A stretch of DNA of 64,000 bases, taken from positions 92,682 to 156,681 of the forward strand of contig JBKQLU010000044.1 of the NCBI GenBank assembly GCA_052326585.1, in the 5' to 3' direction. Origin of the DNA: Desulfobaccales bacterium (lineage in GTDB: Bacteria; Desulfobacterota; Desulfobaccia; Desulfobaccales; 0-14-0-80-60-11). The position numbers were made by a program, and so were the translations under genes. Within the stretch, counting starts at the first letter, position 1. Each line of letters starts with the position of its first letter. Shown here piece after piece: positions 29,058-51,715 of the stretch. The notes beneath the pieces were generated by a model. It saw only the letters and a program-made list of their open reading frames with translations. It did not search any database and was not told the DNA's origin.

Positions 29058-29651
29058 ATGAACAGCGGTTTTTGTATATGGCTGACTGGGCTGAGTGCCT
29101 CGGGAAAAACCACCATTGCTAAGCTGGTGAAAAATGCTCTTCTATCCAGAGGGTTAAAGGTAGAGGTCTTGGATGGAGATGTGATCCGAAGGAACCTTAG
29201 CGAAGGCTTGGGATTTAGCCGTGCTGACCGGGAAATCAATTTACGGCGGATAGCTTTTGTGGCAGAGCTTTTGGTGCGCCACGGAATAGTAGTGGTGGTT
29301 GCGGCGATCACGCCTTATCAATCTATCCGTGAAGAAGTGCGGAGTACCATCGGTGAATTCTTTGAGGTTTATCTCAATTGCCCTTTGGAAATTTGCATTC
29401 AACGTGATCCTAAGGGCCTTTACAAGAAGGCGCTATCAGGCGAAATTCGGAATTTTAGCGGGATAGGTGACGTATATGAAACGCCGAGGCATGCGGATAT
29501 TGAATTGAAGACGCATTTGGAAAGCGCGGAAAATTGTATGCATAAAATTATTAAAACCATAGAAATCCTTAATAAAATCCCTCCAAAGGAGGATGGTTTT
29601 TTGGAAAAAGACAGCGATTTTTTCGAAAAACGCCAAATCATTTTAGATTGA
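29058..29651 (+). CDS. cysC: Adenylyl-sulfate (APS) kinase
   Basis: IWLTGLSASGKTTIA P-loop, LDGDVIRRNLSEGLGFSRADREINLRRIAFVAELL, GLYKKALSGEIRNFSGI. Confidence 0.92.
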   Translation: MNSGFCIWLTGLSASGKTTIAKLVKNALLSRGLKVEVLDGDVIRRNLSEGLGFSRADREINLRRIAFVAELLVRHGIVVVVAAITPYQSIREEVRSTIGEFFEVYLNCPLEICIQRDPKGLYKKALSGEIRNFSGIGDVYETPRHADIELKTHLESAENCMHKIIKTIEILNKIPPKEDGFLEKDSDFFEKRQIILD

Positions 29652-29769: not shown

Positions 29770-31800
29770 ATGGACAAATTTCAGATCATCACCTTAACCC
29801 CGTCAGGCTTCCCCAATGCTACGATAGCCATTGCCGGCTGTCGAGCTGACGGATTGGGGGTGTTAGATTTGGAGTATTGCCCGCACGCCCAGGCAGCTAA
29901 TGAAGCCATCAAGTCCCTCGCCGGTAACACCAGGAGTTCCTTCGGCGTTAAGTTCGCTGGGAATGATGTGGAACTCATAGAAGAGATCACTTCTAGCCCC
30001 CCAGAAAATCTGGACGTTGTCATCATAGGACGCATCGACCTGGACCAATTAAAGCGGCTCGTAGAAACGCAAAGCTTTAAGGGCTTCAGAGTTTTGCTTG
30101 AATGCACGTCATTGTCCGAGGCTCGCCTTGGAGAAGAGGCAGGGGTTGCGGGAGTTATTGCCAAGGGGCATGAAGCAGGCGGGTGGGTAGCTCAGGAAAC
30201 CACCTTCATTTTACTCCAGCAATTTCTCCATAGCCTCTCCATTCCGGTTTGGGCCCAGGGAGGTATAGGTCAACATACGGCCAGTGCCTGTTTTGCTGCG
30301 GGAGCGGCCGGGGTGATTTTGGACAGCCAATTGACCCTCACCCGGGAGTCTCCCCTTCCCGAAGCTATTAAATCGAGAATTGCGAACTTTGATGGCAGTG
30401 AAACCATTTGTCTTGGAGAGACATTGGGAGTACCCTTCCGGGTCTGCTCACGCTTGGGAACTCCGTTGATCAAGGAGTTGCAAGAATTTGAAAAACAACT
30501 AACCCGCGAGGGAACCGCTACGAGCGAGGGCTTGGCCCAATTCCGCCGCGCCATCGCTTCCCAGGTAGATTGGCAATCTCCGGAAAATAACCTCGTTCTT
30601 TTCGGGCAGGATATTGGGTTCGCAGCTCCTTTGGCCCACAAGTTTGAGACCGTTGGAGGGATTTTAGCAGCCATTCGGCAAACCATCAAAGGCAACTGTC
30701 AGGCGGCGGCGACTAACCAGCCATTGGCCCAAGATTCTCCTTTGGCCCGGTCCCATGGTACCAGCTATCCAATCGTTCAGGGGCCCATGGCCCGGGTAAG
30801 TGATAATCCAGCCTTCGTGGCTGCGGTGGCCAAGGGAGGAGCTTTGCCGTTTGCGGCGGCGGCCTGGATGCAAGCCCCTGAATTAAAGACCTTGCTTCAT
30901 CAGACCAAAACTCTCTTAAAAGACCAGGCCTGGGGGGTTGGCTTGTTGGGATTTCTGCCCCAAGAGGTATATTCCGAGCAAATCAAGGTAATCCTCGAGT
31001 TTCGGCCTCGTTTTGCTTTGATCGCCGGCGGACAGACCTATCAAGTTAAGCAATTGGAACAGGCGGATATTGCAACCTACGTTCATATCCCTACGCCAGG
31101 ATTACTTCGGATGTTCTTGGCCGAAGGGTTGAGCAGATTTGTCTTTGAAGGTCGCGAGTCCGGCGGGCATGTGGGACCTTTCTGTAGCTTTGTGCTTTTT
31201 GAAACAGCGATTAATGTGCTCTTGGAATCACCCGCGGTTAACAAGGCACCGGAGAATTATCATATCTTGTTCGCCGGCGGCATCCATGATGACTTGTCTG
31301 CCGCAATGATCGGAGTCTTGGCTGGCCAATTGATTGAGCGGGGCATCAAGGTAGGCCTCCAAATGGGTACCGCGTATCTTTTCACCGAGGAAGCGGTGTC
31401 CAGTGGAGCCATCGTCCGGACTTTCCAGCAAGAAGCCCTGCAATGCAACTCCACCACCTTGCTAGTTTCAAGTCCTGGCCATGCTGATCGTGTCATCGAG
31501 ACCCCATTCGTCCAGGTTTTCAACCAGGAAAGATGCTTGCAATCTGCATCAGGTGCCACGGTGGAGGCAATGCGCAACTCCCTGGACCGCATCAAAATAG
31601 GGCGATTGCGAATTGCCACCAAGGGTATCGCCAGAAATCCTAACCATAAAGATAATCCGCAAACGCCGAAGTTTATCAACCTGAGCGAGAACAAACAGCG
31701 GGCGCAGGGGATCTACCTGATTGGACAACTGGCTGCCATGCGGAGCCAGGTTGGCACCATTGCTTCCTTGCATCATGACATTTCCACCCTTGGAACAGCT
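29770..31800 (+). other. Domain: two tandem nitronate-monooxygenase/PfaD-like TIM-barrel (enoyl reductase) modules
   Basis: The first module (aa ~1-300) is divergent, with GGW in place of GGH. The second (aa ~330-680) is canonical trans-ER/PfaD-like. Confidence 0.65.
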
Positions 31801-34800
31801 CGAATCGACCAAAGTTGGCAAGAATGCTCCGAAGCTTATGCGCCTAGCGAGGAATCAGAGCCAGCGGATGTCGCCATTATCGGCATGGCCTGTCTGCTGC
31901 CCCGGGCTTCCAACCTTCAGGCCTACTGGGAAAACATTCTTAATAAGGTTAATGCCATCAAGGAAATTCCTGCCGAGCGTTGGGATTGGCGCCCTTACTA
32001 TGACCAGGATCGGGCCACCCGAGACAAAATCTGTTCAAGGTGGGGCGCGTTCATAGATGATATTCCTTTTGATCCAACGGCCTATGGCATGCCCCCCAAT
32101 TCTCTTTCTTCCATTGAGCCTTTGCAGCTTCTGACCCTTGAAGTCACCAAATGGGCCTTGGCAGATGCGGGGTATGCAAAACGGCCATTCCGTCGTGACC
32201 GCACCTCCGTTGTCCTTGGGATTAGCGGGTCCGGGGAACTCGCCCAGCTTTACAGCCTCAGGACCGCATTGCCCCAATTCTTCGGGGACCGATCCCGGGA
32301 TATACTGACCCATTTCGATGGGGTCCTGCCAGAATGGACAGAGGACACCTTCCCGGGCATTTTGATGAATGTCGCGGCGGGGCGTATCGCCAATCGGTTC
32401 AATCTGGGGGGAGCCAATTGTACGGTAGATGCAGCCTGCGCATCATCCCTGGCCGCGGCTTACTGGGCGGTGAGGGAGCTGGAAGCCCGGGCCTGTGATA
32501 TGGCCATTGTGGGTGGTGCAGATTGCATGCAAAATCCCTTCACCTATATGTGTTTTTCAAAGACCCAGGCCCTGTCGCTTCAGGGAACCTGTAACTCGCT
32601 GGATGAAGGCGCAGATGGCATCGTGCTTGGTGAGGGAATCACCGTAATGATTTTCAAGCGTCTTGCTGATGCTGAGCGGGACGGCGATCGTATTTATGCG
32701 GTCATTAAGGGGGTGGGAGCTGCCAGCGACGGGAGGGAAAAGAGCCTTACCGCGCCCAATCGGGAAGGGCAGGTCCGGGCCCTTGAGCGGGCTTATGCCA
32801 AGGCTCGCGTATCTCCGGCCGCGGTGGGACTAATTGAAGCCCATGCAACCGGGACCACGGTGGGCGACCGCATTGAGATTGAGTCCCTCAGTAAAGTTTT
32901 CAAAGATGCCGGAGCCGGGAGCCGGGGTTGCGCCATTGGTTCAATCAAGTCGATGATCGGGCACACCAAATCTTCCGCCGGATTGGCGAGCCTCATCAAG
33001 ACCACCCTGGCATTGCATCATAAAGTTTTGCCGCCGACGCTGGGAGTGGCAAGGCCTAACTCCGTCCTCCTTCTCCCTGATACCCCCTTCTATGTCAATA
33101 CCGAGTCACGCCCCTGGCTGAATGCTACGGAGAATCAGCCTCGCAGGGCGGGAGTCAGCGCTTTCGGCTTTGGGGGTACCAATTTCCATGTGGTCCTGGA
33201 AGAATATACGAGGAATTATCTCGACCAGCAGGGCTGTGCATCATTCCAGGATTGGCCGGTTGAGCTGTTTTTCTGGGAAAGAGGCTCTCGTCAGGAATTG
33301 GTGGAAGCCCTCGCTGCTTTTGAAGAATCATTGCGCAGCGGAGTCAACTCATCCCTTGGCGATCTGGCTTTTATGCATTTTACGGATCAGAGAAGAGCGC
33401 CTGCCGGAACGGAAGCACCTTTACGCCTGGCTGTGGTTGCCTCTTGTCGCAAAGATTTGCAAGGCAAATTAGCCAAGGCCAAGGAATCTTTGTCGAATTT
33501 TGATTCAACCTTATGCGATCCAACGGGAATTTATTTTAATGAACGCCCGCTGGCGCCGGCAGGCAAGGTAGCCTTTCTTTTCCCCGGCCAGGGGTCTCAG
33601 TATATCAACATGTTGGCGGACCTTGCTATTCAATTCCCCGAAATCCGAGCCAGGTTCGAGCAAAGCGATCGTCTTCTGGCGGGAAGGTTTCCCAGGCCAA
33701 TGACCAGCTATGTATTCCCGCCTTCAGCTTTTACTGAGGAGGAAATTTCTTCCCAGAAAGAAGCCCTGGCAGATACCCTGGTATCCCAACCTGCGGTAGG
33801 AACCGCCGGCCTCGCCTTATTTCATTTCTTGCAATCCTTGGGAATCAAGCCGGAAATGGTGGCTGGTCATAGTTACGGGGAATATGTGGCCTTGAGTGCG
33901 GCCGGGGTACTGGACCCCGATGACCTGATCCTCCTTTCGGAGGCCAGGGCGCGTTTCATTGTCGATAGCGCCGGGCCGCATCCCGGGGCCATGGCGGCGA
34001 TCAACGCCAAGGTTGACACCGTTAGCGCTCACATAAAAGGACTGGAGGGAGTCTGGGTCGCCAATGTAAATGCGCCGGAGCAGACCGTTATTTCCGGAAC
34101 CCGACCAGGTGTAGATGCCGCCGTAGATATTTTTCGCAAGGAGAATATCCGGGCCCGGATTATTCCGGTGAGTTGCGCCTTTCATTCCCCGATCGTTTCC
34201 CCTGCCTGCCAGGCTCTTGAGGCGTACCTCTCTACCCTTAAGTTGGGCTCGCCCAGGTTAAGGATCTTTTCCAACAGCACGGCCGCCCCTTACCCGGTGG
34301 AGCCTGAAGCCATTGCCCATCAACTCGTGAAACACTTGGAAAGTCGGGTGGAGTTTGTCCAGGAAATTGCCGCCATGTACGAAGATGGAGCCCGCATCTT
34401 CTTGGAAGTCGGGCCGGGCCGGGTATTAACAGACCTTGTGGGGCAGATTTTAAACCACCGTCCCCATCTGGCAGTGGCTAGCAACCCGGCCGGGCGATCA
34501 GGACTGGTGAGTCTGCTGCACGCTGCAGCTCAATTGCTGGCACATGGTGTTTCCGTCAACTTGGAGAAGATTTTCCAAGGCAGATTTTTTAAAAAGGTTG
34601 AGGCCACAGCGCCTGACCAGGATCAGATGCGAACTTCCTCAACCTGGATGGTGAATGGCGCCAAGGCCAGGCCTTTCAAGGAATCCGCCGCCTCAAGTGG
34701 CGGGATCAGGATTACCCCATTTCATTTTGTAGATACTAAAGGAACGAGAGCAACAGCGGCAATCTCAACCTCGGGATCTTTAAGAGGGGAAGGTGGCCGT

Positions 34801-37800
34801 AAACCCGTAAGCCTGTCTGGTTCAGGCTGCGATGCCTTGCCGGCTTCATCGCAGGATGAGCCTCCAAATAATCAGCCGGATCAGGTCATGCTCCAGTATC
34901 AACGTCTTATGCAGCGTTTCCTGGAAGCCCAGAAGGCCGTAATGCTGAAGTATCTCGAGGTTGCTGGTCAGACGCCGGTTCATTTCCAGGAGGGCAACAC
35001 ATCCGTCGCTTCGGTTGCGTTTAAAGAGGCGGCGGTGCCGCCGCTCTTGGGGGGGGAATCTGATACCCGCGGGTTAAGCCAGCCAAAATCATCTGACGTG
35101 AAGCAGGCGCCAGTTCCGGGGGGGATAGAGATAACCGCGCCTATCCTGTCTTACAACCAGCCCACTGCCAATCAGGAAGAGTTGAGCTCGACTCTTCTTA
35201 AAATCGTGAGCGAGCGAACCGGTTATCCCCCGGAAATGCTGGGCCTGGATTTGAGCCTGGAAGCGGATTTGGGCATCGATTCCATAAAAAGGACGGAGAT
35301 CATAGGCCATTTTCTGCAGTGCATCTTCCCGCTGGAGGACGGTGGACCTCCCGAAGAATTGACGGAGTTGAGCCGGGTAAATAGTTTGGGCGAGATTATC
35401 GAGCAGGTTGCGGCCTGTCGCATAAATTCTAGCCTGAGCGCCGCCATAATCCCATCTCCAGCGCCGCCCGCTATTTCTTTAATATCTCCCACTTCCTCTC
35501 AGGCTCAGGAACTTTTGCCGCGCTTCACTTTGACGGCGGTGCCCGCACCGGTCCCCACCGGTTCCGTACGCCTGGCTCCCGGGCGACTGGTGCTGATTAC
35601 CGATGATGGCCGGGGTATTGCCGCAGCCCTGGGGGAAAAATTACGGCAATACGGCTTAAAGACTGCTTTAGTGCGATTGGCTGGTGGCAGAACCACTGAC
35701 ACGGAATACTGTCTTGCGGATATTTCATCAGCAAGTTTGGCAAGCCTCTTGGAGACTATGCGGCGAGAGCAGGGACCAATTGGCGCCTTGGTTCATCTGC
35801 TGCCCTTGAGACCTTGGACCTCTTATGATGAACTTGATCTGGCAGGCTGGCGGAGTCGCTTGCAAGAAGACATTGTCGCACTTTATCAGCTCCTGAAATT
35901 GACAGCCCCGGATCTCAAGGAGGCGGCAGGGGCGGGCGGCGCCTGGGTGGTGTCTGCTTCCGGCATGGGAGGATATTTCGCCAGCGATCCTCTGCAGCAA
36001 ACAGATTTTTTCCCTGGACAAGGCGGTGTCGCCGGTTTGTTGAAGACGGTGGCGATAGAATTACCTGAAGTCCGAGTGAGGTGTGTGGATCTAAGTTTGG
36101 ACGAAGGGAATGCCGTGCTGGCGGAGTGTCTTCTCTCGGAGATCGAGGCTGGAGACGAAATGCTGGAGATAGGGTATCGTCATGGACAACGCCTGACTTT
36201 AGGTCTGCAGGAGATGCCCCTCTCAGCTCGCCAGGGAAATGGACTTCAGGTTGATTCCTCTTCAATCATCCTGGCTACCGGCGGCGCCCGGGGAATAACC
36301 GCCGCAGTGACCCTGGAAATGGTACGCAAGTACCAACCAATTCTGTTATTAGCGGGGCGGGCGCCCTTACCCCCAGAAAATGAAGGGGCCGAGACTGCGG
36401 GCTTGACCCAGCCCCAAGAATTGAAAGCTAGTCTGGTTGAGAGCAGAAGGCGCCAGGGGCAATCCATCAACCTCCCGGAGGTGGAAGCAGCTTACCGCAA
36501 TCTTCTCAAGGAAAGGGAAATTCGAGGCAACCTTGCCGCCTTACGCGCCGCAGGCTCCCAGGTGGCGTATTTTCAAGTGGATGTCCGAGATCCAGTCGCC
36601 TTCGGAGACCTCCTGGATCACATTTATAGCCATTACAGCCGGCTGGATGGCGTTATCCATGGGGCTGGCATCATTGAAGACAAAATGCTCCAGGATAAAT
36701 CCCGGGACTCTTTTGACCGAGTCTTTGGAACCAAGACAGAGAGCGCCTTTATCCTCAGTCGAAAGCTAAACCCTGAAACCCTCAAATTTCTAGTGCTCTT
36801 CTCCTCTGTGGCTGGGCGCTTTGGGAGCCGCGGCCAGAGTGATTATACTGCTGCCAACGAAGTGTACAACAAACTGGCTGTATACCTGGACCGGAAGTGG
36901 CCCGGGAGGGTGCTGGCCATCAACTGGGGCCCCTGGAAAACCGCTGGCATGGCATCGGCTGAAGTGCAGCGGCAGTTTCAAGAACGGGGAGTGCAGTTGA
37001 TAGAACCGGCTGCCGGGGCCAGGTCTTTCGACCTGGAGCTGCATCGGGGCTGCAAAGGTGAAGGAGAAGTAGTGATCGGTGACGGTCCTTGGCGGCAGCA
37101 AGCCTTTTCGCACCCAATTGACGTTGGTATCGCCGCCTCCCTACCACTGTTGGAGCAGTTCACTACATACCAGAAGCTCAATGGGCAGCTTGAGATCGTC
37201 AGACGTTTAGATCCGGATCATGATCTTTACTTGATGGATCATCGCCTGGACTCCAAGCCGGTGTTACCCGCAGCCATGGCCATAGAATTGATGGCTGAGT
37301 CGGCCCAAAAAAACTTTCCTGAGTGGCAAGTGGTCGGTCTCAAAGATGTGCGAGTATATAAAGGGATCGTCTTGGTTGATGGCTTTTGCGATATCCATAT
37401 TCTCATAGGCACGCCTGGGGCCTGCCCCCAGTCGTCAGCAAAAATGGAACTCGAGGTTACTATTAAGGGGACCTCCCGGCCAGAGCCGATATTTTACCAG
37501 GGAACGGTGATAATGAGTCCGGGGCCTATTTCCCCGGAAGCACATCATTTACCATCGGCGGAAGAATTCCAGGATTTCGGGATAGCCGCGGCTGAAGCTT
37601 ACCGCAGATTTACATTCCACGGCCCGCGTTTCCAAGGTATCCGAAGCATCTTGGGGATCAGCGAGAAAGGGATGCTCGCCACGGTGGCGCCTTCTTCGCC
37701 CCAATCCTGCCTGGCCGGTAACCCCTCTGGTCCGTGGCTTATCGACCCGGTGGCGATTGATTGCGGCCTCCAGATGGCCCTGCTCTGGGGGCGGACTTAT

Positions 37801-38061
37801 CTCGATATCACCCCTCTTCCTTCCAGTTTCAAGGAGATCTGGCTTTACGAACACTTCCACACCGCCGACACGCTAACCTGTTATTACGAGGTGCTGAAGA
37901 AATTCGGGGGACAGACCGTTTATGCCAACATCTATTATTTTGACCAGGAAGGCAGCCTCCGGGGAATCATTAAAGAGTTTGAATCCACCGGGAGCAAGGA
38001 GTTAAATCGGTTAGCCGGTTCTCATCTCCGAGAAGGAGATTTATCTCTTCGTAATAAATAG
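29770..38061 (+). CDS. Iterative-type PKS/PUFA-synthase-like megasynthase: tandem NMO/PfaD-like ER - KS - AT - ACP - KR - DH (2763 aa)
   Basis: ER region: KGHEAGGWV...AQGGIG, then YPIVQGPMARVSD...FEGRESGGHVG...FAGGIHD. KS: DAAC(890)ASS, EAHATGT, IGHTKSSAG. AT: GQGSQ, GHS(1368)YGE, CAFHSP. ACP: DLGIDS(1838)IK. KR: ATGGARGIT, SDY(2359)TAAN. DH: MDH(2491)RLDSKPVLP. Confidence 0.9.
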   Translation: MDKFQIITLTPSGFPNATIAIAGCRADGLGVLDLEYCPHAQAANEAIKSLAGNTRSSFGVKFAGNDVELIEEITSSPPENLDVVIIGRIDLDQLKRLVETQSFKGFRVLLECTSLSEARLGEEAGVAGVIAKGHEAGGWVAQETTFILLQQFLHSLSIPVWAQGGIGQHTASACFAAGAAGVILDSQLTLTRESPLPEAIKSRIANFDGSETICLGETLGVPFRVCSRLGTPLIKELQEFEKQLTREGTATSEGLAQFRRAIASQVDWQSPENNLVLFGQDIGFAAPLAHKFETVGGILAAIRQTIKGNCQAAATNQPLAQDSPLARSHGTSYPIVQGPMARVSDNPAFVAAVAKGGALPFAAAAWMQAPELKTLLHQTKTLLKDQAWGVGLLGFLPQEVYSEQIKVILEFRPRFALIAGGQTYQVKQLEQADIATYVHIPTPGLLRMFLAEGLSRFVFEGRESGGHVGPFCSFVLFETAINVLLESPAVNKAPENYHILFAGGIHDDLSAAMIGVLAGQLIERGIKVGLQMGTAYLFTEEAVSSGAIVRTFQQEALQCNSTTLLVSSPGHADRVIETPFVQVFNQERCLQSASGATVEAMRNSLDRIKIGRLRIATKGIARNPNHKDNPQTPKFINLSENKQRAQGIYLIGQLAAMRSQVGTIASLHHDISTLGTARIDQSWQECSEAYAPSEESEPADVAIIGMACLLPRASNLQAYWENILNKVNAIKEIPAERWDWRPYYDQDRATRDKICSRWGAFIDDIPFDPTAYGMPPNSLSSIEPLQLLTLEVTKWALADAGYAKRPFRRDRTSVVLGISGSGELAQLYSLRTALPQFFGDRSRDILTHFDGVLPEWTEDTFPGILMNVAAGRIANRFNLGGANCTVDAACASSLAAAYWAVRELEARACDMAIVGGADCMQNPFTYMCFSKTQALSLQGTCNSLDEGADGIVLGEGITVMIFKRLADAERDGDRIYAVIKGVGAASDGREKSLTAPNREGQVRALERAYAKARVSPAAVGLIEAHATGTTVGDRIEIESLSKVFKDAGAGSRGCAIGSIKSMIGHTKSSAGLASLIKTTLALHHKVLPPTLGVARPNSVLLLPDTPFYVNTESRPWLNATENQPRRAGVSAFGFGGTNFHVVLEEYTRNYLDQQGCASFQDWPVELFFWERGSRQELVEALAAFEESLRSGVNSSLGDLAFMHFTDQRRAPAGTEAPLRLAVVASCRKDLQGKLAKAKESLSNFDSTLCDPTGIYFNERPLAPAGKVAFLFPGQGSQYINMLADLAIQFPEIRARFEQSDRLLAGRFPRPMTSYVFPPSAFTEEEISSQKEALADTLVSQPAVGTAGLALFHFLQSLGIKPEMVAGHSYGEYVALSAAGVLDPDDLILLSEARARFIVDSAGPHPGAMAAINAKVDTVSAHIKGLEGVWVANVNAPEQTVISGTRPGVDAAVDIFRKENIRARIIPVSCAFHSPIVSPACQALEAYLSTLKLGSPRLRIFSNSTAAPYPVEPEAIAHQLVKHLESRVEFVQEIAAMYEDGARIFLEVGPGRVLTDLVGQILNHRPHLAVASNPAGRSGLVSLLHAAAQLLAHGVSVNLEKIFQGRFFKKVEATAPDQDQMRTSSTWMVNGAKARPFKESAASSGGIRITPFHFVDTKGTRATAAISTSGSLRGEGGRKPVSLSGSGCDALPASSQDEPPNNQPDQVMLQYQRLMQRFLEAQKAVMLKYLEVAGQTPVHFQEGNTSVASVAFKEAAVPPLLGGESDTRGLSQPKSSDVKQAPVPGGIEITAPILSYNQPTANQEELSSTLLKIVSERTGYPPEMLGLDLSLEADLGIDSIKRTEIIGHFLQCIFPLEDGGPPEELTELSRVNSLGEIIEQVAACRINSSLSAAIIPSPAPPAISLISPTSSQAQELLPRFTLTAVPAPVPTGSVRLAPGRLVLITDDGRGIAAALGEKLRQYGLKTALVRLAGGRTTDTEYCLADISSASLASLLETMRREQGPIGALVHLLPLRPWTSYDELDLAGWRSRLQEDIVALYQLLKLTAPDLKEAAGAGGAWVVSASGMGGYFASDPLQQTDFFPGQGGVAGLLKTVAIELPEVRVRCVDLSLDEGNAVLAECLLSEIEAGDEMLEIGYRHGQRLTLGLQEMPLSARQGNGLQVDSSSIILATGGARGITAAVTLEMVRKYQPILLLAGRAPLPPENEGAETAGLTQPQELKASLVESRRRQGQSINLPEVEAAYRNLLKEREIRGNLAALRAAGSQVAYFQVDVRDPVAFGDLLDHIYSHYSRLDGVIHGAGIIEDKMLQDKSRDSFDRVFGTKTESAFILSRKLNPETLKFLVLFSSVAGRFGSRGQSDYTAANEVYNKLAVYLDRKWPGRVLAINWGPWKTAGMASAEVQRQFQERGVQLIEPAAGARSFDLELHRGCKGEGEVVIGDGPWRQQAFSHPIDVGIAASLPLLEQFTTYQKLNGQLEIVRRLDPDHDLYLMDHRLDSKPVLPAAMAIELMAESAQKNFPEWQVVGLKDVRVYKGIVLVDGFCDIHILIGTPGACPQSSAKMELEVTIKGTSRPEPIFYQGTVIMSPGPISPEAHHLPSAEEFQDFGIAAAEAYRRFTFHGPRFQGIRSILGISEKGMLATVAPSSPQSCLAGNPSGPWLIDPVAIDCGLQMALLWGRTYLDITPLPSSFKEIWLYEHFHTADTLTCYYEVLKKFGGQTVYANIYYFDQEGSLRGIIKEFESTGSKELNRLAGSHLREGDLSLRNK

Positions 38062-38065
38062 CAGG

Positions 38066-41000
38066 TTGAGTTTAATGGCAGGCAAGGACTTTAAAGGAAA
38101 CAAGGTTTCCGCGCCAGGTGAGGTAGCCATCATCGGGATGGCCTGTATCTTCCCCAAGGCTCCCAATTTGCAGACCTTCTGGCAAAACATCGTCTCGAAG
38201 GTAGATGCCATTGATGATCCGGCTGAAGCAAGCCTGACCAGTCAGGTATATGACCCAACCTCCACGGCGAATAACCGCATTTACTGTAAGCGCGGCGGTT
38301 ACTTGAAAGAATTACCCCCTTTCAATCCCGCCGATTTCGGGATTATGCCGGTGGCGTTGGACGGGTCGGAACCGGAACATTTTATGGCCCTTAAGATAGC
38401 TTACGATGCCCTGGCGGACGCCGGCTATCCTGATAAGCCATTTAACCGCGAACTTACCGAAGTCATCCTGGGCCGAGGCACCTTCGTCAACCGGGCCTAT
38501 ATCAGCATGTTGCAGCATGTCCTGGTGGTGGATCAAACCATCAAAATTCTCAAAGAGTTGCATCCAGAGCACACCACGGCAGAACTGGAATCTATCCGGG
38601 AAAGGCTCAAAGCTAGCCTGCCGCCCTTTACTCCTGATACCGCCCCCGGTTTACCCCATAGTGTGATGGCCGGCATCATCGCCAACCGACTGGACTTGAA
38701 AGGCCCCAGTTTGGTGATAGACGCCGCTTGTGCCTCCTGCTTGCTGGCTTTAGAGATTGGCATGCGAGACCTGCTGACTGGGCGATGCGATGCCTGTCTG
38801 ATCGGCGGCGTCCAGATCTCTACTCCGGCCCCTATCCACATGCTCTTCACGCAACTGGGGGCCCTCTCCCATCTACCCCAGTTGAGGCCGTTCGACCAGA
38901 GGGCTGACGGCACTATGCTGGGCGAAGGGATCGGGATGATGGTTCTCAAGCGTAAGGAAGATGCAGTCAGAGACGGCCATCGGATTTATGCTCTGGTAAA
39001 AGGGGTGGGAGCATCCAGCGACGGCAAGGGTAAAGGCCTGCTGGCGCCTCAAGTGGAAGGGGAAGAACTGGCCCTGCGGCGAGCCTATGAGGCAGCAGGG
39101 GTGACCCCGGACACCATCGGCTTGATTGAGGCACACGGGACCGCCTTGCCCCTGGGCGATATTACCGAAATCGAGGCCCTGCGGCGGGTCTTTGGTGGTC
39201 GGAATAGCGGCTTCCCCCGCGTGGCCTTAGGAACGGTGAAATCCATGATCGGCCACCTCATCCCGGCGGCGGGCATCGCGGGGTTAATCAAGGCGGCCTT
39301 GTCCTTATATCACAAAATTTTGCCTCCCACCCTCCATGCAGAGGAGCCCAATCCCGCGCTGGAGATGGAGCGAACCCCTTTTTATCTGAATACGGAAACC
39401 CGACCTTGGATTCACGGTTCCTCCCGGCTGCCGCGTCGCGCCGGGGTTAATTCCTTTGGATTCGGCGGCATCAACACGCATGCGGTGCTGGAGGAATATT
39501 CCGGTGAAGCGGCTCCTGCGGAACTCTATCACCGGATCTGGGAAACAGAGCTCATCCTCATTGAAGGCGCGACCCGCCAGGAACTCATTGACCAGTGCGA
39601 TCTTACCCTGGAATTTTTGGCTCACCAGGCTGAAGCAGACCTGGTAGATATCGCCTCCAGCCTGAACCGACGTCTGAAAGGTAAGCCATACCGGCTGGCC
39701 ATTGTCGCGGAGTCATTGGAAAATCTGGTCAAAAAGTTGAGCCACGGCAGCCAAAAGCTGAGAGATCCAAACCGGGGTCAGATTAAAGATAGAAGCGGTA
39801 TCTACTTTTTTGAAAATCCATTGAGTGGACCGGGAAAACTGGCCTTTCTCTTCCCGGGGGAGGGTTCCCAATATGTGCATATGCTCCAGGATCTTTGTCA
39901 GCATTTCCCTGAAGTAAGAAATTGCTTCGACCTCCTGGATCAAGCGTTTAGCGACCATCCCCGGAACTACCTACCCAGTCAGATCATATTCCCGCCGACG
40001 GAAAAAGATGTTGCCGAAGCGGGGACCAGAATCTGGCAGATTGATGGCGCGGTGGATGCGGTGATCACGGCAGATCGGGCCCTTTTTCGGTTGCTCACTC
40101 TCTTGGGTGTCACTCCCGATGGCATCGCGGGGCATAGCAGCGGTGAACTGATGGCCCTGGAGGCGGCAGGCGCCGTCGCCCTGCGGGGCGACGAAGAACT
40201 GGTCCGGCTTATCAAGGCCGGCAACCAGATGCTCGAAGCCTTGATGGCGGCCCAGGATATCCCGACGGGGGTTCTGCTGGCGGTAGGCGGAGTGGATCGA
40301 CCGGCCATTACCGCAGTCATTGAAAAAAGCTCTGAATTTTTGGTGCTCGCCATGGATAACTGCCCCCATCAATTTGTGCTTTGCGGGACAGAAACCTCCA
40401 TCGCGGCCGCCAAAGCAAAGTTTCTCGAGCTGGGGGGCATCTGTCAATCTTTGCCGTTTACGCGGGCCTACCATACGGAACGCTTTGAACCTATTCTGGG
40501 GCCACTGCGTAACTATTTTCAGAAAGCGACTATTGTATCACCTGCTATTCCTCTCTATTCGTGCATGACCGCAGGGCCTTTCCCTCAGGAGCCAAAAGAA
40601 ATTCGGCGTTACGCGGTGCAACAGTGGGCCAAGCCAGTGCGCTTCCGGGAAACGATTGAGGCAATGTATCAGGATGGTTTCCGGATCTTCCTGGAGGTGG
40701 GCCCTCGGAGCAATCTGACCAGTTTCGTCAATGATATTTTAAAAGGCCAATCGTTTCTGGCAGTGGCCGCTAATGTGCACCAGCGGTCCGGGATCACGCA
40801 ATTGAACCATGCTTTGGGTGTTCTCGCGGCCCATGGTGTGGCCATGAAACTGGATGTCTTGTATAAGTATCGAGCCCCCCGGCAGTTGGATATAGAATCT
40901 GGTGTCGCCGCGCCTCCCGGGAAGCACACCCCAGGCGTCATCCTATCACGAGAATTGCCACTGTTGACCCTGGGAAAGGATGATACTCCCCACGACCAGG

Positions 41001-43570
41001 TTAGGCCCGGGACGCAGTTGGAAGCACAACCGGATAGGCCTCAGCACTGCCAGGTAGGTAATCGAGACATTTGTTCCACTATTCCGAAGAGGACAGATAC
41101 TATTTTTCCGGAAAAACTAGGGGCAGCGCCCGGAACGGAGCTAAGCGCAGCAGAGAATTCTTTTTCAACGGAGAAAATGGCTAAACTGGGCCAAAGGCTA
41201 GGGACCCAGGCAGTCATGCAAGAGTATCTGGCCACCATGGAAGGGTTCCTGGAAACCCAGGAGCAAATTATGCTGGCCTATATTCAGGAAGGCTCTCTCT
41301 CCCTGGGCGAGATTGAGCCTCGGAGCGGAGTGCGGCACCGTGAGACCGACATTCAGGGTGGTTCTGAGATTGCATTTGGGAAAGAATTGACTGCGGTTTC
41401 TCCTCCTGCCCCCAGACAGGTCGAACCGCAAACCCTAAACCTCAACAAGGAATCGACCGTTGCCGCCTCTACGAGGGCTCAGGCCCCGGAGAAGAACCTG
41501 GCCTCGCTACTCTTGTCCATTATCAGTGACAAAACCGGTTACCCGCTTGATATGCTGAATGAGCATCAAAACCTGGAGGCAGACTTGGGGATCGATTCCA
41601 TTAAGCGGATCGAGATCCTGGGAATGCTGTTCCAGCAGCGTGAAGCGCTTACAGTACCCCCCGAGGATCTCGGGTCGTTGCGGACGGTGGCGGAGATCGT
41701 AGCGTTCCTGTCAGCATCGCCGGACACCAAGAGCATTGCGCCGGGAAAGCGCCCAGTTATCCTGGTACAGAAGAGTGGTGGAGCGCCTGGCGATGACGAC
41801 AACCCTGAACTGCCCTTGGTTCTGCGGCCGGGAGGTAGAATAGTCTACTTGGTGCCCCATCAGGAAGTCAGGGTGAATAGAATTCTGGATGTGGAGGAAG
41901 ACCTATTTCTCCGGCATCATACGCTGGGGGGACAGGTGTCCCAAATTACCCCAGAATTGCTGGCGCTGCCGGTTGTTCCCCTCAGCATGAGCTTGGAAAT
42001 GATGGCTGCGGCGGCTGTCCTTCTGAACCCGCAAAAACACCTCGTGGGTATGAAAAATATCCAGGTACACGATTGGCTAGCGATGACTGAGGGAAGCCTT
42101 GAGCTGGAAATAACGGCTCAAGTCCAGTCGGCAACTGCCATCGAGGTGCAGTTGCGCAAGCAGGATTCTACGTCCAAGCAAGCCAAAAAGCCTCGCCTGG
42201 CACTGGAAGGTACCATGATCTTTGGGGGAGAATATCCCGCCGCTCCTGATGCCGGACCCTTTGATCCTGGGGTTGAACTCCCATCAATTCCCCCACCGGA
42301 GGATTTCTATCCCCAAGCTCTTTTCCACGGTCCGTTGTTCCGCTCTGTCAAGGAGATCAGGTATTCCGGCAAAAATGGCGTAGAGGCGGTCTTGGAGAAT
42401 ACGCTCACCCAGCCTTTCTTCCGGAACCAGCCCTCTGACCTTTTTTTGACCAACCCGATTCTTTTGGACGGGGCCGGGCAAGTGGTAGGTCTCTGGGCCA
42501 TTGCCTCCTTGGAATCGACTTTTGTAATCTTTCCTACGATGATAGATGAAATCACCTTTTACGCTTCCCTCGGGGGTCGGACAGGAGAGGTTATTTGTCG
42601 CATTAACCCTCACCTCGAAGGCAATACCAGGATAACTTCAGATATCCGGCTAGTTGCAGAAGACGGGACCTTGTTGGTCCATCTCCAGGGGATGCACCAC
42701 AACCGGCTTAAGCTGCCAAAGATTCTTCATCTCTTTAGGGGTTCGCGGGAGATCATGCTCAGCAGTCCCTGGCGGCTGCCCCTTGCCTCCCTGCCTGAGT
42801 CTAAAAAGATGACCTGTAATCGGCTTGACCCCTTGCCGGTGGAATTCAGTGGCGCTGAAGGCCAGATTTGGCTGAATGTGATAGCTCATATAGTGCTTAG
42901 TAATGAAGAGCGCCAGACTTGGGTTCAACTTTCTGACCTTGATAAACGGCGTATCGAATGGTTAATGGCGCGCCTGACGGGCAAGGAAGCAGTCCGGCGC
43001 CTATTGCAAGAGAATTACAGCCTTGATGTGTGGCTGGCGGATATTGACATTTATCAAGACAACCGGGGGAAACCCTTGGTCCGGGGAGAATGGCTCAACA
43101 AGATCGAAGCGGCGCCAGCGCTGTCTCTGACGCATTCTAACGGAGTCGCTGTGGCCTTGGCTGCGGATAGCTCATCTGGCATCAGCGTCGGGGTCGATAT
43201 CGAATCAGTTCATCGTCCGGGGAAAGGCTTTCCCGAGGTAGCCTTTGCTCCCGAAGAACGGGATCTTCTGCCGCCCCCGCAAACGCCGGAATTCCACGAG
43301 TGGTGCTTACGCCTCTGGTGTGCCAAAGAAGCTGTGGGGAAGGCCTTGGGCCGGGGATTGCCAAACCTGCTGCGAGATTTGAAAGTGGTAGCGGTAAATA
43401 GTCAGACAGGAATAATCAGCGTGGAGGTGACGAATAAATTGGCCCAGGATTATCGACACCTGGCCGGTAAACCTCTCCAAGCTTACACGGCAGGCTCCGA
43501 AGAATTTATTGTGGCAAGCGCATTCATTAAGGAAGTCTCCGGAAACCGCGCGACATCCAAGAACGCTTAA
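38066..43570 (+). CDS. PKS megasynthase: KS - AT-like - ACP - DH - Sfp-type PPTase (1834 aa)
   Basis: KS: DAAC(222)AS, EAHGTA, IGHLIPAAG. AT: GEGSQ, GHS(691)SGE, RAYHT. ACP: DLGIDS(1178)IK. DH: LRHH(1285)TLGG. PPTase: GVDIESV, FAPEER, WCAKEAVGKALG. The start lies 4 nt after the upstream stop (TTG at 38066 or ATG at 38075). Confidence 0.9.
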   Translation: MSLMAGKDFKGNKVSAPGEVAIIGMACIFPKAPNLQTFWQNIVSKVDAIDDPAEASLTSQVYDPTSTANNRIYCKRGGYLKELPPFNPADFGIMPVALDGSEPEHFMALKIAYDALADAGYPDKPFNRELTEVILGRGTFVNRAYISMLQHVLVVDQTIKILKELHPEHTTAELESIRERLKASLPPFTPDTAPGLPHSVMAGIIANRLDLKGPSLVIDAACASCLLALEIGMRDLLTGRCDACLIGGVQISTPAPIHMLFTQLGALSHLPQLRPFDQRADGTMLGEGIGMMVLKRKEDAVRDGHRIYALVKGVGASSDGKGKGLLAPQVEGEELALRRAYEAAGVTPDTIGLIEAHGTALPLGDITEIEALRRVFGGRNSGFPRVALGTVKSMIGHLIPAAGIAGLIKAALSLYHKILPPTLHAEEPNPALEMERTPFYLNTETRPWIHGSSRLPRRAGVNSFGFGGINTHAVLEEYSGEAAPAELYHRIWETELILIEGATRQELIDQCDLTLEFLAHQAEADLVDIASSLNRRLKGKPYRLAIVAESLENLVKKLSHGSQKLRDPNRGQIKDRSGIYFFENPLSGPGKLAFLFPGEGSQYVHMLQDLCQHFPEVRNCFDLLDQAFSDHPRNYLPSQIIFPPTEKDVAEAGTRIWQIDGAVDAVITADRALFRLLTLLGVTPDGIAGHSSGELMALEAAGAVALRGDEELVRLIKAGNQMLEALMAAQDIPTGVLLAVGGVDRPAITAVIEKSSEFLVLAMDNCPHQFVLCGTETSIAAAKAKFLELGGICQSLPFTRAYHTERFEPILGPLRNYFQKATIVSPAIPLYSCMTAGPFPQEPKEIRRYAVQQWAKPVRFRETIEAMYQDGFRIFLEVGPRSNLTSFVNDILKGQSFLAVAANVHQRSGITQLNHALGVLAAHGVAMKLDVLYKYRAPRQLDIESGVAAPPGKHTPGVILSRELPLLTLGKDDTPHDQVRPGTQLEAQPDRPQHCQVGNRDICSTIPKRTDTIFPEKLGAAPGTELSAAENSFSTEKMAKLGQRLGTQAVMQEYLATMEGFLETQEQIMLAYIQEGSLSLGEIEPRSGVRHRETDIQGGSEIAFGKELTAVSPPAPRQVEPQTLNLNKESTVAASTRAQAPEKNLASLLLSIISDKTGYPLDMLNEHQNLEADLGIDSIKRIEILGMLFQQREALTVPPEDLGSLRTVAEIVAFLSASPDTKSIAPGKRPVILVQKSGGAPGDDDNPELPLVLRPGGRIVYLVPHQEVRVNRILDVEEDLFLRHHTLGGQVSQITPELLALPVVPLSMSLEMMAAAAVLLNPQKHLVGMKNIQVHDWLAMTEGSLELEITAQVQSATAIEVQLRKQDSTSKQAKKPRLALEGTMIFGGEYPAAPDAGPFDPGVELPSIPPPEDFYPQALFHGPLFRSVKEIRYSGKNGVEAVLENTLTQPFFRNQPSDLFLTNPILLDGAGQVVGLWAIASLESTFVIFPTMIDEITFYASLGGRTGEVICRINPHLEGNTRITSDIRLVAEDGTLLVHLQGMHHNRLKLPKILHLFRGSREIMLSSPWRLPLASLPESKKMTCNRLDPLPVEFSGAEGQIWLNVIAHIVLSNEERQTWVQLSDLDKRRIEWLMARLTGKEAVRRLLQENYSLDVWLADIDIYQDNRGKPLVRGEWLNKIEAAPALSLTHSNGVAVALAADSSSGISVGVDIESVHRPGKGFPEVAFAPEERDLLPPPQTPEFHEWCLRLWCAKEAVGKALGRGLPNLLRDLKVVAVNSQTGIISVEVTNKLAQDYRHLAGKPLQAYTAGSEEFIVASAFIKEVSGNRATSKNA
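42860..43567 (+). other. Domain: in-cis 4'-phosphopantetheinyl transferase
   Basis: RRIEWLMARLTGKEAVRRLL, LSLTHSNGVAVALA, GVDIESV, WCAKEAVGKALGRG. Confidence 0.8.
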
Positions 43571-43630: not shown

Positions 43631-43945
43631 ATGTGCCCACAAAAAACTGACAACGAATCCAAAGGACGCCTTTCCAAGGAGACTATTTTTGAAGAGGTTT
43701 CCAAGATCTTGGCAGATATGACCAGTGATTGGGACATTGATTTTTCGGGGGGGATTACACCTGATACTCAGATAATATCGGACCTGCAGTTCGAATCTAT
43801 CGATGTCGTCCAGTTCATTGTGCAACTTGAGGGTAAATTTCAACGCAAAGACCTGCCCTTCGAAAAACTCTTGATGGTGGATGAACGCTATCGGGATGAT
43901 TTTACGGTGCAAGAAGCGGTTGACTTTCTCCAGAAAAATCTCTAA
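43631..43945 (+). CDS. Stand-alone acyl carrier protein-like protein
   Basis: 104 aa. A four-helix-type sequence with ISDLQFESIDVVQFIVQLE (Ser in the ESID attachment context). GGAGG SD. Confidence 0.65.
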   Translation: MCPQKTDNESKGRLSKETIFEEVSKILADMTSDWDIDFSGGITPDTQIISDLQFESIDVVQFIVQLEGKFQRKDLPFEKLLMVDERYRDDFTVQEAVDFLQKNL

Positions 43946-51672: not shown

Positions 51673-51715
51673 TCGAACCCCTATTATGAAGATTAATAAA
51701 AAGGAGAGCTACCCG

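Follow-up and report, generated by a model that had tools for sequence, protein, structure and literature searches.

Two adjacent genes in a 64,000-nucleotide stretch of a Desulfobaccales genome (contig JBKQLU010000044.1; this whole stretch is referred to below as the window) encode proteins, designated here P1 and P2, which we interpret, with a probability of about 0.6, as an iterative "secondary lipid" synthase that resembles type I fatty acid synthases, belongs to the Pfa/Ars lineage, and has a product that would be tailored to a sulfated and exported lipid. The iterative and fatty acid-like character of this synthase, proposed in the original prediction, is supported by the domains of both proteins and by their homology to Ars and PfaA proteins. 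In our searches of the literature, we found neither a characterised product of such a system nor a sulfated lipid of the Pfa type.

Domain organisation and active sites of P1 and P2

The genes of P1 and P2 follow each other on the plus strand, as do all their domains listed below, and both are intact. The open reading frame of P1 (29770..38061) encodes 2763 aa with the domain order ERa-ERb-KS-AT-ACP-KR-DH, where ERa and ERb denote two FabK-like barrels at the N-terminus. The open reading frame of P2 extends from a TTG codon at 38066 to 43570 (1834 aa). Since the database copy of this protein has 1831 aa, translation probably begins with the ATG at 38075, and P2 (38075..43570) has the order KS-AT-ACP-DH-PPTase. 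Pfam matches with E-values of 1e-63 to 1e-5, well past chance, assign in P1 the NMO family (in three stretches of residues 1 to about 650), KS (700-1093), AT (1269-1562), ACP (about 1808-1847), KR (2167-2390), and PS-DH (2459-2737), and in P2 KS (19-425), AT (594-894), ACP (1148-1215), PS-DH (1411-1548), and PPTase (1707-1782). The predicted two-protein architecture, in which a full reductive set is accompanied by a second KS-AT-ACP-DH-PPTase unit, is thus borne out by the Pfam domains and by the intactness of both reading frames.

The catalytic residues of nearly all these domains could be read directly. The KS domains, taken together with their KS-AT linkers, keep the Cys-His-His triad both in P1 (31867..33234; C890, H1025, H1065) and in P2 (38120..39673; C222, H357, H397), and neither domain searches nor sequence reading revealed a second KS-like (CLF) stretch in either protein, in agreement with what had been claimed. 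The AT domains contain the motifs GHSYG and CAFHS in P1 (33574..34455) and GHSSG and RAYHT, the latter invariant in the family, in P2 (39845..40747). Each protein has one LGIDSI carrier motif and one PP-binding match, with the carrier serine at S1838 in the ACP of P1 (35191..35379), where this motif is the only one, and at S1178 in the ACP of P2 (41507..41710); tandem ACPs are present in neither. The prediction of single ACPs is therefore accurate for P1 and P2 themselves, although it has to be extended by a free-standing ACP gene (43631..43945, plus strand), which lies directly downstream of P2, encodes a protein of 104 aa with the motif LQFES56ID, and is recognised by NCBIfam ACP models (E 3e-8) and by a weak Pfam PP-binding match. 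This brings the carrier proteins of the system to three, none of them tandem. The KR of P1 (36268..36984) contains the motifs GGARG and YTAAN. P2 has no KR, and only about 50 residues separate its ACP from its DH. The catalytic His and the Asp of the DxxxQ motif are kept in the DH of P1 (37144..37980) as well as in that of P2 (41855..42709), and all dehydratase matches in both proteins are of the PS-DH/PKS_DH_N kind, with no FabA-type DH. The PPTase of P2 (42953..43465) contains the motifs GVDIE, WCAKE, RGKP (at 1667), and LSLTH (at 1686). The domain is thus intact and able to activate the carrier domains.

The two N-terminal NMO-like barrels of P1, ERa (29770..30744) and ERb (30745..31839), had been recognised in the original prediction, which did not distinguish between them. 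Results of our analysis indicate that both are FabK-like and that only the second has the catalytic histidine. Each of the two halves covers almost the whole FabK model (positions 24-282 and 11-264 of 307), and the confident AlphaFold model of P1 residues 1-690 (pLDDT 92, pTM 0.93) is nearest in structure comparison to FabK structures (TM 0.87), as compared with only about 0.5 for PfaD. Barrel 2 alone contains QGPM (residues 337-340) and the sequence E-G-R-E-x-G-G-His467, which occur in 109 of 109 homologues, and is likely the active enoyl reductase. At the corresponding position of barrel 1 (GHEAGGW139 in P1), the homologues have R, W, or L, and His in only one of the 109, which points to a degenerate paralogue devoid of the catalytic His. 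Almost no direct similarity between ERa and ERb was detected by BLASTP; their kinship follows from the match of each half to FabK and not from direct alignment, and the duplication is ancient. Taken as a whole, P1 contains all activities required for fully reducing elongation from malonyl units, namely, KS, malonyl-type AT, ACP, KR, DH, and an FMN-type ER.

Relationship to Ars, PUFA, and enediyne synthases

The nearest characterised relative of the P1/P2 system appears, by sequence, to be ArsA/ArsD, the type I fatty acid synthase that provides long alkyl chains for the phenolic cyst lipids (alkylresorcinols) of Azotobacter, the comparison being made through the ars-type cluster of Beijerinckia indica pBIND02. 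ArsA serves as fatty acid synthase for C22-C26 chains, ArsD carries a PPTase, and ArsA together with the DH-PPTase of ArsD yields saturated C22-C26 acyl-ACP (PMC4824345, PMC3098273, PMC13291983). The P1-like protein of Beijerinckia has the Pfam architecture tandem-NMO-KS-AT-ACP-ACP-KR with no C-terminal DH and shares 44% identity with P1 across 1656 aa, collinear from residue 6 and with both barrels included (32% for ERa, 46% for ERb, 48% for KS-AT, and 46% for KR). The 629 aa DH-PPTase of the same cluster aligns with P2 residues 1254-1785 (27% over 571 positions, E 2e-42; 28% for DH and 31% for PPTase). The system of Azotobacter vinelandii ("Type P" of Shulse & Allen) and that of the window thus share tandem FabK-like barrels followed by KS-AT-ACP-KR, a degenerate first barrel (GGQ in Beijerinckia, GGW in P1) and an active-type second one (GGH), the absence of PUFA-style carrier arrays and of CLF, and a DH-PPTase partner, which in P2 forms the C-terminal third. 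They differ in that there is one KS in the Ars system, ArsA contains two ACPs and no DH, the DH-PPTase is stand-alone, and two type III PKS genes lie between the synthase genes, whereas in the window an extra active KS-AT-ACP is fused ahead of the DH-PPTase, P1 has an additional DH, each protein has one ACP accompanied by the free one, type III PKS genes are absent, and sulfation genes are present. The KS-AT of P2 shares only 35% identity with that of the ArsA-type protein, for which reason we regard it as a divergent paralogue.

The claim that this architecture fits no known family therefore does not hold, as it overlooked the ArsA/ArsD relative. The description of the system as an uncharacterised subtype may be retained insofar as the two-KS form has no known product, but has to be qualified by its relation to the known Ars type. 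On the basis of its domains, the two-KS form would be best regarded as a variant of the known Ars-like synthase, distinct in its second KS-AT-ACP, its second DH, and the lack of a type III PKS. The opposite possibility, namely, that P1 and P2 act as a plain ArsA/ArsD-type fatty acid synthase which passes acyl-ACP to a head-group enzyme encoded elsewhere, e.g., a type III PKS, to give phenolic lipids that are then sulfated, could invoke the same homology, and sulfated alkylresorcinols (panosialins) occur in nature. We consider it highly improbable: no Chal_sti_synt protein was detected by Pfam within the window, a crude active-site motif screen found no type III PKS in 80 related loci, and nothing in the ars system corresponds to the additional KS-AT-ACP and DH.

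The KS domains were placed here by family-model scores and pairwise identities. The PfaA subfamily model (TIGR02813) scores P1 at 1183 bits, above its cut-off of 1010, and P2 at 702 bits, under it, and is the best NCBIfam model for the KS-AT didomains of both proteins. Besides the KS-AT...KR core of P1, which passes this model, the system shares with PfaA-E the predicted iterative, malonyl-fed mode of synthesis, an FMN-type (NMO-fold) ER, and a PS-type DH after KR. The tandem array of 4-9 ACPs, KS-CLF, FabA-type DH pair, and PfaB of PfaA-E have no counterpart in P1 and P2, the ER is duplicated and joined to P1, with a fold closer to that of FabK than to that of PfaD, and the PPTase forms part of the second protein. 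Domain searches found no discrete PfaB or PfaD among the genes of the window, and the original prediction was thus right in separating the system from canonical PfaA-E. It could be argued that the two proteins nevertheless form a joint machine like that of PUFA synthases, with both KS domains extending one chain in turn and sharing the single KR and ER, and with two DHs setting which cycles keep a double bond, so that a mono- or polyunsaturated long chain is made. The ratio of two KS and two DH domains to one KR and one ER and the top score of the PfaA model are in line with this, and the two KS domains of PUFA synthases are known to divide labour by chain length. Such a machine is, however, unlikely here, given that both DHs are of PS type with no FabA-type dehydratase/isomerase, that CLF and carrier arrays are missing along with PfaB and PfaD, and that the Ars relative yields saturated chains.

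The order of domains in P2 resembles that of the enediyne PKSE (KS-AT-ACP-KR-DH-PPTase), including the integrated C-terminal PPTase, but P2 has no KR and is paired with the fully reducing P1; that the system is not a PKSE had been correctly anticipated. A reading as a PKSE-like polyene or enediyne synthase, in which P2 iterates with a KR in trans and with no enoyl reduction to produce a conjugated polyene, could draw on the FabG-like SDRs of the cluster and on loci with a P2-type gene alone, such as that of Microcystis (L068). It seems to us very hard to reconcile with the short stretch between ACP and DH of P2, with the presence of P1 and its active-type ER beside P2 in 85% of loci, and with the absence of any enediyne PKS from the top 60 PDB matches listed for each protein. 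Domain searches of the neighbouring genes also showed nothing like enediyne tailoring enzymes, the hot-dog thioesterase and UNBL/UNBV/UNBU being outside the scope of these searches.

Within published classifications, the P1/P2 system very probably belongs to "Types M-T", the single-ACP group of Shulse & Allen 2011 (PMC3098273). The PPTases of these types have the motifs P1a x(G/D)xP and P1b' hShxH, to which RGKP and LSLTH of P2 correspond. "Type O" of these authors (Dinoroseobacter, Parvularcula, Gloeobacter), a likewise uncharacterised secondary lipid synthase, resembles the system in its taxa, the related loci coming from Parvularculaceae, Paracoccaceae, and Gloeobacterales among others. Type M, also uncharacterised, is described as a fused pfaDA and a pfaBC-PPTase, with the ER fused to the PfaA-like protein (PMC13291983) as in P1, but its second protein is described as pfaBC-like (KS-CLF), unlike P2.

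Gene neighbourhood and a proposed route to a sulfated lipid

The synthase genes lie in an island of low GC content, at the left edge of which, marked by tRNA-Pro(GGG) (26052..26128, plus strand; ARAGORN and Rfam), the GC content falls from about 0.63 to about 0.52. The window was searched for a further copy of the tRNA-Pro 3' end as a sign of the island's other border, and none was found. A series of plus-strand genes with short gaps and overlaps extends from 28299 to 59659; a promoter and terminator scan of 26.1-30 kb was of no help in fixing the start of the operon. Upstream of this series are a c-di-GMP-I-GGC variant riboswitch aptamer (26638..26720, plus strand; RF03167, 71.5 bits vs. a gathering score of 59, E 6e-15) and, preceded by it, a gene for a DUF4114/PEP-CTERM protein (26869..27546, plus strand; Pfam), whose membership in the cluster is uncertain.

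Several genes could serve sulfation. The small sulfotransferase ST1 (28299..28904, plus strand; Pfam Sulfotransfer_3/_1), homologues of which are present in four related loci (L019, L054, L059, and L080), and an APS kinase for PAPS supply (29058..29651, plus strand; Pfam APS_kinase, E 1e-59) precede P1. On the minus strand are a protein of the TauE/SafE sulfite/sulfonate exporter family (60193..61317), the 384 aa sulfotransferase ST2 (61644..62798; Pfam Sulfotransfer_3, E 3e-36), and a Na+/sulfate symporter (62818..63951; Pfam Na_sulph_symp, E 1e-126), the reading frame of which begins at profile position 94.

Downstream of the free ACP, the plus strand encodes an alkaline-phosphatase-superfamily phosphodiesterase, predicted to be cytoplasmic (43972..45552; Pfam Phosphodiest, E 2e-37), with metal and nucleophile motifs that look intact and with no PDB relative in sequence searches, and an alpha/beta hydrolase (GHSFG) fused to PilZ (45570..46754; Pfam), a candidate chain-releasing thioesterase. 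The next protein (46780..49092) joins a beta-propeller (residues about 20-510) to a class I methyltransferase. Its propeller part belongs to no Pfam family, and sequence searches of PDB with the whole protein gave methyltransferase matches only. The AlphaFold model of the propeller (pLDDT 87) yielded only generic Foldseek matches (lectins, Kelch domains, prolyl-oligopeptidase propellers, and Diels-Alderases), from which no function can be derived. The propeller has 957 homologues and is fused to the hydrolase in Aquipseudomonas alcaligenes. Further genes of the series encode a UbiE/BioC-like methyltransferase (49100..49996; Pfam, NCBIfam), two FabG-like SDRs (49993..50820, with 3-ketoacyl-ACP reductases as the best NCBIfam models, and 50887..51672; Pfam, NCBIfam), a PHA-depolymerase-like esterase (51653..52687; NF050058, 171.7 bits vs. 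a cut-off of 150), likely secreted as it has an N-terminal hydrophobic segment, a lipid O-methyltransferase-like protein nearest to the models of phthiotriol dimycocerosate methyltransferase and fatty-acid O-methyltransferase Mtf2 (52770..53567), a TPR-PilZ protein (53647..55089), an HExxH intramembrane-protease-like domain fused to an HlyD/DevB-type membrane fusion protein (55237..57525), and a TolC-type outer membrane efflux protein (57560..59005).

From these genes we infer the following pathway, with its chain length, the sharing of work by the two KS domains, and all tailoring steps. P1 would build a long saturated chain. P2, a second KS-AT-ACP-DH unit with no KR or ER of its own, may then take over the chain for the last extension or extensions, leaving oxygen or unsaturation near the carboxyl end; as P2 lacks a KR, its DH is predicted to need a KR in trans, either that of P1 or the SDRs. 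The occurrence of a P2-type gene with no P1 in four related loci suggests that P2 may not depend on P1 in the way proposed. The alpha/beta hydrolase, probably assisted by the free ACP and the beta-propeller protein, would free the chain, the SDRs and O-methyltransferases would tailor it, and the sulfotransferases would sulfate it, drawing on PAPS made available by APS kinase and sulfate uptake. The resulting amphiphile could be exported to the cell surface by the HlyD-TolC pair. The phosphodiesterase might, as a guess, edit or remove phosphopantetheine-bound species. Two PilZ fusions and the nearby riboswitch suggest that c-di-GMP probably controls the output in this organism.

The same neighbourhood could be read as a terminal-olefin pathway of the CurM/OLS kind, in which a sulfotransferase activates the last beta-hydroxyl and the hydrolase releases and decarboxylates the chain to a long-chain 1-alkene, the sulfate being recycled. 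In the ST-TE pair of CurM, activation by the sulfotransferase is followed by release and decarboxylation, and in the window discrete sulfotransferases, the APS kinase, and the hydrolase adjoin a final module with neither ER nor KR. Nevertheless, we find this reading very unlikely. Neither the sulfotransferases nor the hydrolase are fused to the synthase, in most loci the hydrolase is kept with no sulfotransferase beside it, also where a glycosyltransferase takes its place, and the dedicated sulfate importer, TauE exporter, and HlyD-TolC pump are more in keeping with a sulfated amphiphile that is secreted than with a hydrocarbon.

A parallel in logic to the proposed sulfated lipid is offered by the heterocyst glycolipid island (HglE/D/C, DevBCA-HgdD), where a Pfa-like synthase also provides a long oxygenated chain that receives a polar group, and where export to the envelope also involves a membrane fusion protein and TolC; the HlyD part of the 55237..57525 protein matches the DevB family model weakly. 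The island differs in the tandem ACPs of HglE and the KS-CLF of HglC, while the polar group proposed for the window is sulfate and not sugar, and no thioester reductase was seen at this locus.

Occurrence of the family and its significance

The pair of P1 and P2 recurs in 53 of the 62 related loci with enough flanking sequence, in at least eight phyla, and is the dominant form; it is thus not unusual in the sense of rare, contrary to how it had been described. At least 597 related stretches occur among species-representative genomes. The DH-PPTase didomain alone forms 687 clusters at 50% identity, and this search of protein representatives, which took in both short (ArsD-like) and long (P2-like) forms, included many truncated metagenome proteins. 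Among 80 related loci, the families of the phosphodiesterase (49 loci), hydrolase (43), propeller, and free ACP (28) each recur in 28-49. The median length of the hydrolase is only 294 aa, which indicates that its fusion to PilZ is uncommon in the family. A sulfotransferase is found in 19 of the 80 loci and a glycosyltransferase in eight, never both in one locus, a pattern in line with a hydroxylated lipid that receives different polar groups as alternatives; MacB/ABC genes also accompany related loci. As a sulfotransferase is present in only about a quarter of the loci, sulfation is not a trait of the family.

Put together, these observations allow a broader, still tentative reading. The conserved cassette of ArsA-like reducing synthase, second KS-AT-ACP-DH-PPTase, free ACP, alkaline-phosphatase-type phosphodiesterase, alpha/beta hydrolase, and Pfam-less beta-propeller might make an undescribed class of very-long-chain envelope lipids, bearing sulfate or, in other lineages, sugar, in roughly ten phyla, with the phosphodiesterase acting on phosphopantetheine-bound intermediates and with production in this Desulfobaccales genome gated by c-di-GMP via the hydrolase-fused PilZ. 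If true, the action of the phosphodiesterase would represent a new editing or offloading step.

According to a paper of 2026 (PMC13291983), the "secondary lipids" of Pfa-like synthases known so far are a handful, comprising PUFAs, heterocyst glycolipids, the phenolic lipids of Azotobacter, and a small number of hybrid metabolites such as zeamines. The P1/P2 family is among the most widespread uncharacterised forms of Pfa-like synthase. Its cultured carriers include Aquipseudomonas alcaligenes, Rubrivivax gelatinosus, Fischerella, Singulisphaera, and Stagnimonas, and gene knockout combined with lipidomics is therefore directly feasible. Identification of the product would reveal what the second KS-AT-ACP-DH adds to an ArsA-type synthase, and studies of the family could assign functions to the phosphodiesterase, propeller, and free ACP, three conserved proteins, and could reveal a c-di-GMP-controlled surface sulfolipid in relatives of sulfate reducers.

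Domain organization of P1 and P2

Two intact, adjacent open reading frames of the + strand, filling 29770-43570 as had been predicted, encode the synthase proteins P1 (29770-38061; 2763 aa) and P2 (38066-43570; 1834 aa when counted from a TTG codon). Since the public copy of P2 has 1831 aa, its likely start is the ATG at 38075, 13 nt past the P1 stop codon. Pfam searches indicate the domain order NMO (three stretches)-KS-AT-ACP-KR-DH in P1 and KS-AT-ACP-DH-PPTase in P2. The sequences show an intact Cys-His-His triad in the KS of both P1 (C890/H1025/H1065) and P2 (C222/H357/H397), GHSxG in both ATs, one LGIDSI carrier motif per protein, the Rossmann and YxxxN motifs in the P1 KR, PS-type DHs with His and Asp kept in both proteins, and the PPTase motifs in P2. 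The original prediction was thus correct as to the domain content, the two KS triads with no CLF, and the single ACP of each protein.

Every activity that iterative, fully reducing elongation requires is encoded, and the motifs of each are intact; the fused PPTase could plausibly self-activate the system. P1 and P2 are not a canonical PUFA synthase: four of the five features that define one were tested and are not found in them, and neither Pfam nor sequence inspection revealed a CLF, a FabA-type DH or a tandem ACP in these proteins. A joint machine of the PUFA synthase type is unlikely. P2 is not a PKSE because it does not contain KR, and a PKSE-like synthase of polyenes is highly improbable.

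The predicted fusion of the enoyl reductase to the N-terminus of P1 as two NMO-like barrels (ERa or barrel 1, and ERb or barrel 2) agrees with the Pfam NMO matches, with the nearly full-length alignment of both halves to the FabK family model, and with their similar alignment to FabK/NMO structures. The AlphaFold model of P1 residues 1-690, built from 26 sequences (pLDDT 92, pTM 0.93), has FabK enzymes as its top structural matches (TM 0.86-0.89), while PfaD and the reductases of trans-AT PKSs reach only ~0.5. In the alignment of 109 full-length homologues, QGPM and E-G-R-E-x-G-G-His467 are invariant in barrel 2. Barrel 1 lacks QGPM, has Arg, Trp or Leu at the position of the barrel 2 His (His occurs in 1 of 109 homologues), and retains the glycine-rich motifs K-G-x-E-A-G-G and G-G-I-G. 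From these motifs, we read barrel 2 as the working enoyl reductase, and barrel 1 looks like its degenerate paralogue, which perhaps takes the place that a second subunit has in FabK-type dimers.

Relation to the ArsA/ArsD synthase

A search of plasmids with tblastn identified pBIND02 of Beijerinckia indica ATCC 9039. This strain and Azotobacter vinelandii are listed as carriers of the 'Type P' phenolic-lipid (ars) cluster by Shulse & Allen (PMC3098273). The pBIND02 region is annotated as encoding a 2674-aa type I PKS, two 406-aa type III PKSs (Chal_sti_synt_C) and a 629-aa '4'-phosphopantetheinyl transferase superfamily protein', followed by glycosyltransferase and ABC/adaptor export genes. 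According to Pfam, the 2674-aa protein is NMO(x2)-KS-AT-ACP-ACP-KR with no terminal DH, and the 629-aa protein is DH-PPTase. P1 is collinear with the former from residue 6 (44% identity over 1656 aa; 32% for ERa, 46% for ERb, 48% for KS-AT and 46% for KR), and the ars-type ERa likewise lacks the His (GGQ) that is present in the ars-type ERb (GGH). Residues 1254-1785 of P2 match the pBIND02 DH-PPTase (27%, E 2e-42), and the KS-AT of P2 shares only 35% identity with its ars-type counterpart.

These alignments and domain contents indicate that P1 corresponds to an ArsA-like protein that gained a DH, and P2 to an ArsD-like DH-PPTase extended N-terminally by an active KS-AT-ACP. In the formation of C22-C26 chains, ArsA is the fatty acid synthase and ArsD its PPTase-bearing partner (PMC4824345; PMC13291983). 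Judged by its sequence, P1 is the orthologue-like counterpart to a synthase that is known for producing long saturated chains. Hence, while the system fits neither PUFA synthases nor PKSE, as predicted, it does have a known relative with the same defining proteins, from which it differs with regard to the single KS and type III PKS partners of the latter. Type III PKS genes were found neither in the window by domain searches nor in 80 related loci by a crude motif screen, and despite the ArsA likeness it would be very surprising if P1 and P2 were an Ars-type synthase supplying a distant type III PKS. The PPTase motifs of P2 group with Types M-T of Shulse & Allen, and the taxa of the related loci hint that the system may be their 'Type O'.

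Genomic context

To the left of ~26 kb, the window contains housekeeping genes (MutL, Opp permeases, NAD(P)HX repair, sigma-70, EF-G) at ~63% GC. A 676-aa ORF with no family match (23405-25435, +), antisense to the EF-G gene (23354-25495, -), is a shadow ORF typical of this high-GC part; many similar antisense ORFs within the PKS genes owe their conservation across loci solely to that of the PKS. The tRNA-Pro(GGG) gene (26052-26128) lies exactly where GC drops from ~0.63 to ~0.52, and GC of ~52% extends to the window end over the whole lipid, sulfation and export region, which suggests a genomic island at a tRNA gene; a second copy of the tRNA 3' end was not found within the window. A c-di-GMP-I-GGC variant riboswitch (26638-26720, +; RF03167, 71.5 bits), with a GC-rich hairpin and T run after it, precedes a DUF4114/PEP-CTERM protein gene (26869-27546).

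In 28299-59659 every gene has + orientation, and neighbours are separated by short gaps or overlap. The series begins with a small sulfotransferase and an APS kinase, and P1 and P2 are followed by a free-standing 104-aa ACP, an alkaline-phosphatase-superfamily phosphodiesterase, and an alpha/beta hydrolase fused to PilZ (45570-46754). Next are a 770-aa protein whose N-terminal domain (46780-48390) is unassigned and whose C-terminal part is a methyltransferase, then another methyltransferase and a pair of FabG-like SDRs. A PHA-depolymerase-like esterase (51653-52687), likely secreted given its N-terminal hydrophobic segment, matches the NCBIfam catalytic domain of extracellular short-chain PHA depolymerases (171.7 vs. 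cut-off of 150 bits) and has homologues in 10 related loci. The series continues with a lipid O-methyltransferase-like protein (nearest models: phthiotriol and fatty-acid O-methyltransferases), a TPR-PilZ protein (53647-55089), an HlyD-type membrane fusion protein (55237-57525) and a TolC-type protein. At its N-terminus, the HlyD fusion has a multi-pass membrane domain similar to the HExxH intramembrane metalloproteases found in RiPP systems (daptide HExxH model, E 2e-27); such fusions occur also in related loci, e.g., L068 (6840-9437). Beyond the series, on the - strand, are a TauE family exporter, a second sulfotransferase and a Na+/sulfate symporter (62818-63951), whose ORF matches the Pfam profile (472 positions) only from position 94 on; the gene may have lost its 5' end, carry a frameshift or have a misassigned start. 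The two PilZ fusions, together with the riboswitch, point to control by c-di-GMP.

Distribution, recurrent neighbours and proposed product

The architecture had been regarded as unusual, which does not hold in the sense of rare. P1 has a 100% identical match in a protein from a Desulfobaccales MAG, and public data contain P2-type proteins in abundance. At least 597 related stretches were found in a scan of species-representative genomes, and both the P2-type architecture (in some cases with no internal ACP) and the fused NMO region of P1 are common to 120 of the 120 relatives listed for each protein (full-length ones for P2). The 80 loci kept for neighbourhood counts come from Chloroflexota, Acidobacteriota (Bryobacteraceae), Actinomycetota (Solirubrobacteraceae), Planctomycetota (Brocadia, Singulisphaera, Pirellulales, Gemmataceae), Cyanobacteria (Fischerella, Microcystis, Gloeobacterales), Alpha-, Beta- and Gammaproteobacteria (Aquipseudomonas alcaligenes, Rubrivivax gelatinosus, Stagnimonas, Nevskia), Desulfobulbaceae and others. 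In 62 of the loci the sequence reaches 8.5 kb or more upstream of the P2 KS; of these, 53 have ERa, ERb and KR upstream of the P2-type gene, four have a P1-like protein without ER, one has ER matches without a KR match, and four have the P2-type gene alone. A reduced synthase, KS-AT-ACP-KR then KS-AT-PPTase with neither ER nor DH, is encoded in a Beijerinckiaceae MAG (L073, 9704-18775), with a calcineurin-like phosphoesterase gene nearby in place of the AP-type phosphodiesterase. The P2-only variant of Microcystis wesenbergii (L068, 5736-22094; KS-AT-...-PPTase without internal ACP) has no P1 within 10 kb and retains the free ACP, phosphodiesterase, hydrolase, two SDRs, propeller, sulfotransferase, esterase and HlyD fusion.

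Clustering of all ORFs of the 80 loci revealed as recurrent neighbours the phosphodiesterase (49 loci), alpha/beta hydrolase (43), the unassigned domain (35), small ACP (28), SDRs (23), HlyD (17), a Sulfotransfer_3 family (14) and a sulfatase-like protein (12), along with MacB/FtsX and ABC ATPase genes. The median hydrolase length of 294 aa indicates that the PilZ fusion is uncommon in the family; in most related loci, the hydrolase is of about this size and without PilZ. The unassigned domain of ~500 aa, which has no Pfam family, has 957 homologues, stand-alone or fused to methyltransferase, and is highly conserved, with ~50% identity across the 120 best-scoring ones listed. A third form, as in A. 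alcaligenes, is a fusion to the hydrolase (e.g., L040, 19300-21882). The AlphaFold model of the domain (pLDDT 87) is a beta-propeller with generic structural neighbours only.

A later tblastn pass detected a sulfotransferase of any kind in 19 of the 80 loci, a sulfotransferase, APS kinase or sulfatase-like gene in 28, and an EryCIII/UDPGT-type glycosyltransferase in eight. Sulfotransferase and glycosyltransferase never co-occur, which supports a hydroxylated lipid to which one or another polar head group is attached, in a manner resembling heterocyst glycolipids. In the most likely mode of action, P1 would build a long saturated acyl chain, and P2, without KR and ER, would carry out the terminal extension(s) and leave behind a beta-keto, beta-hydroxy or enoyl group; the KR of P1 or the FabG-like SDRs might assist it in trans. 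The chain may be offloaded by the hydrolase, perhaps gated by the propeller and shuttled by the free ACP. SDRs and O-methyltransferases would act on oxygen functions, sulfotransferases would attach sulfate from PAPS, and the HlyD-TolC system would move the amphiphile out. CurM-type olefin formation is a further alternative, although quite an improbable one.

The P1 and P2 synthase is a genuine, intact and widespread system that has been catalogued in outline, and its enzyme class is no surprise to a specialist. Targeted literature searches found no product of the family, in line with the prediction of an uncharacterised subtype, and characterised secondary lipids are still only a handful (PMC13291983, a paper of 2026). 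With its conserved partners, its link to c-di-GMP, a sulfation context and cultured carriers at hand, the system is a tractable subject.
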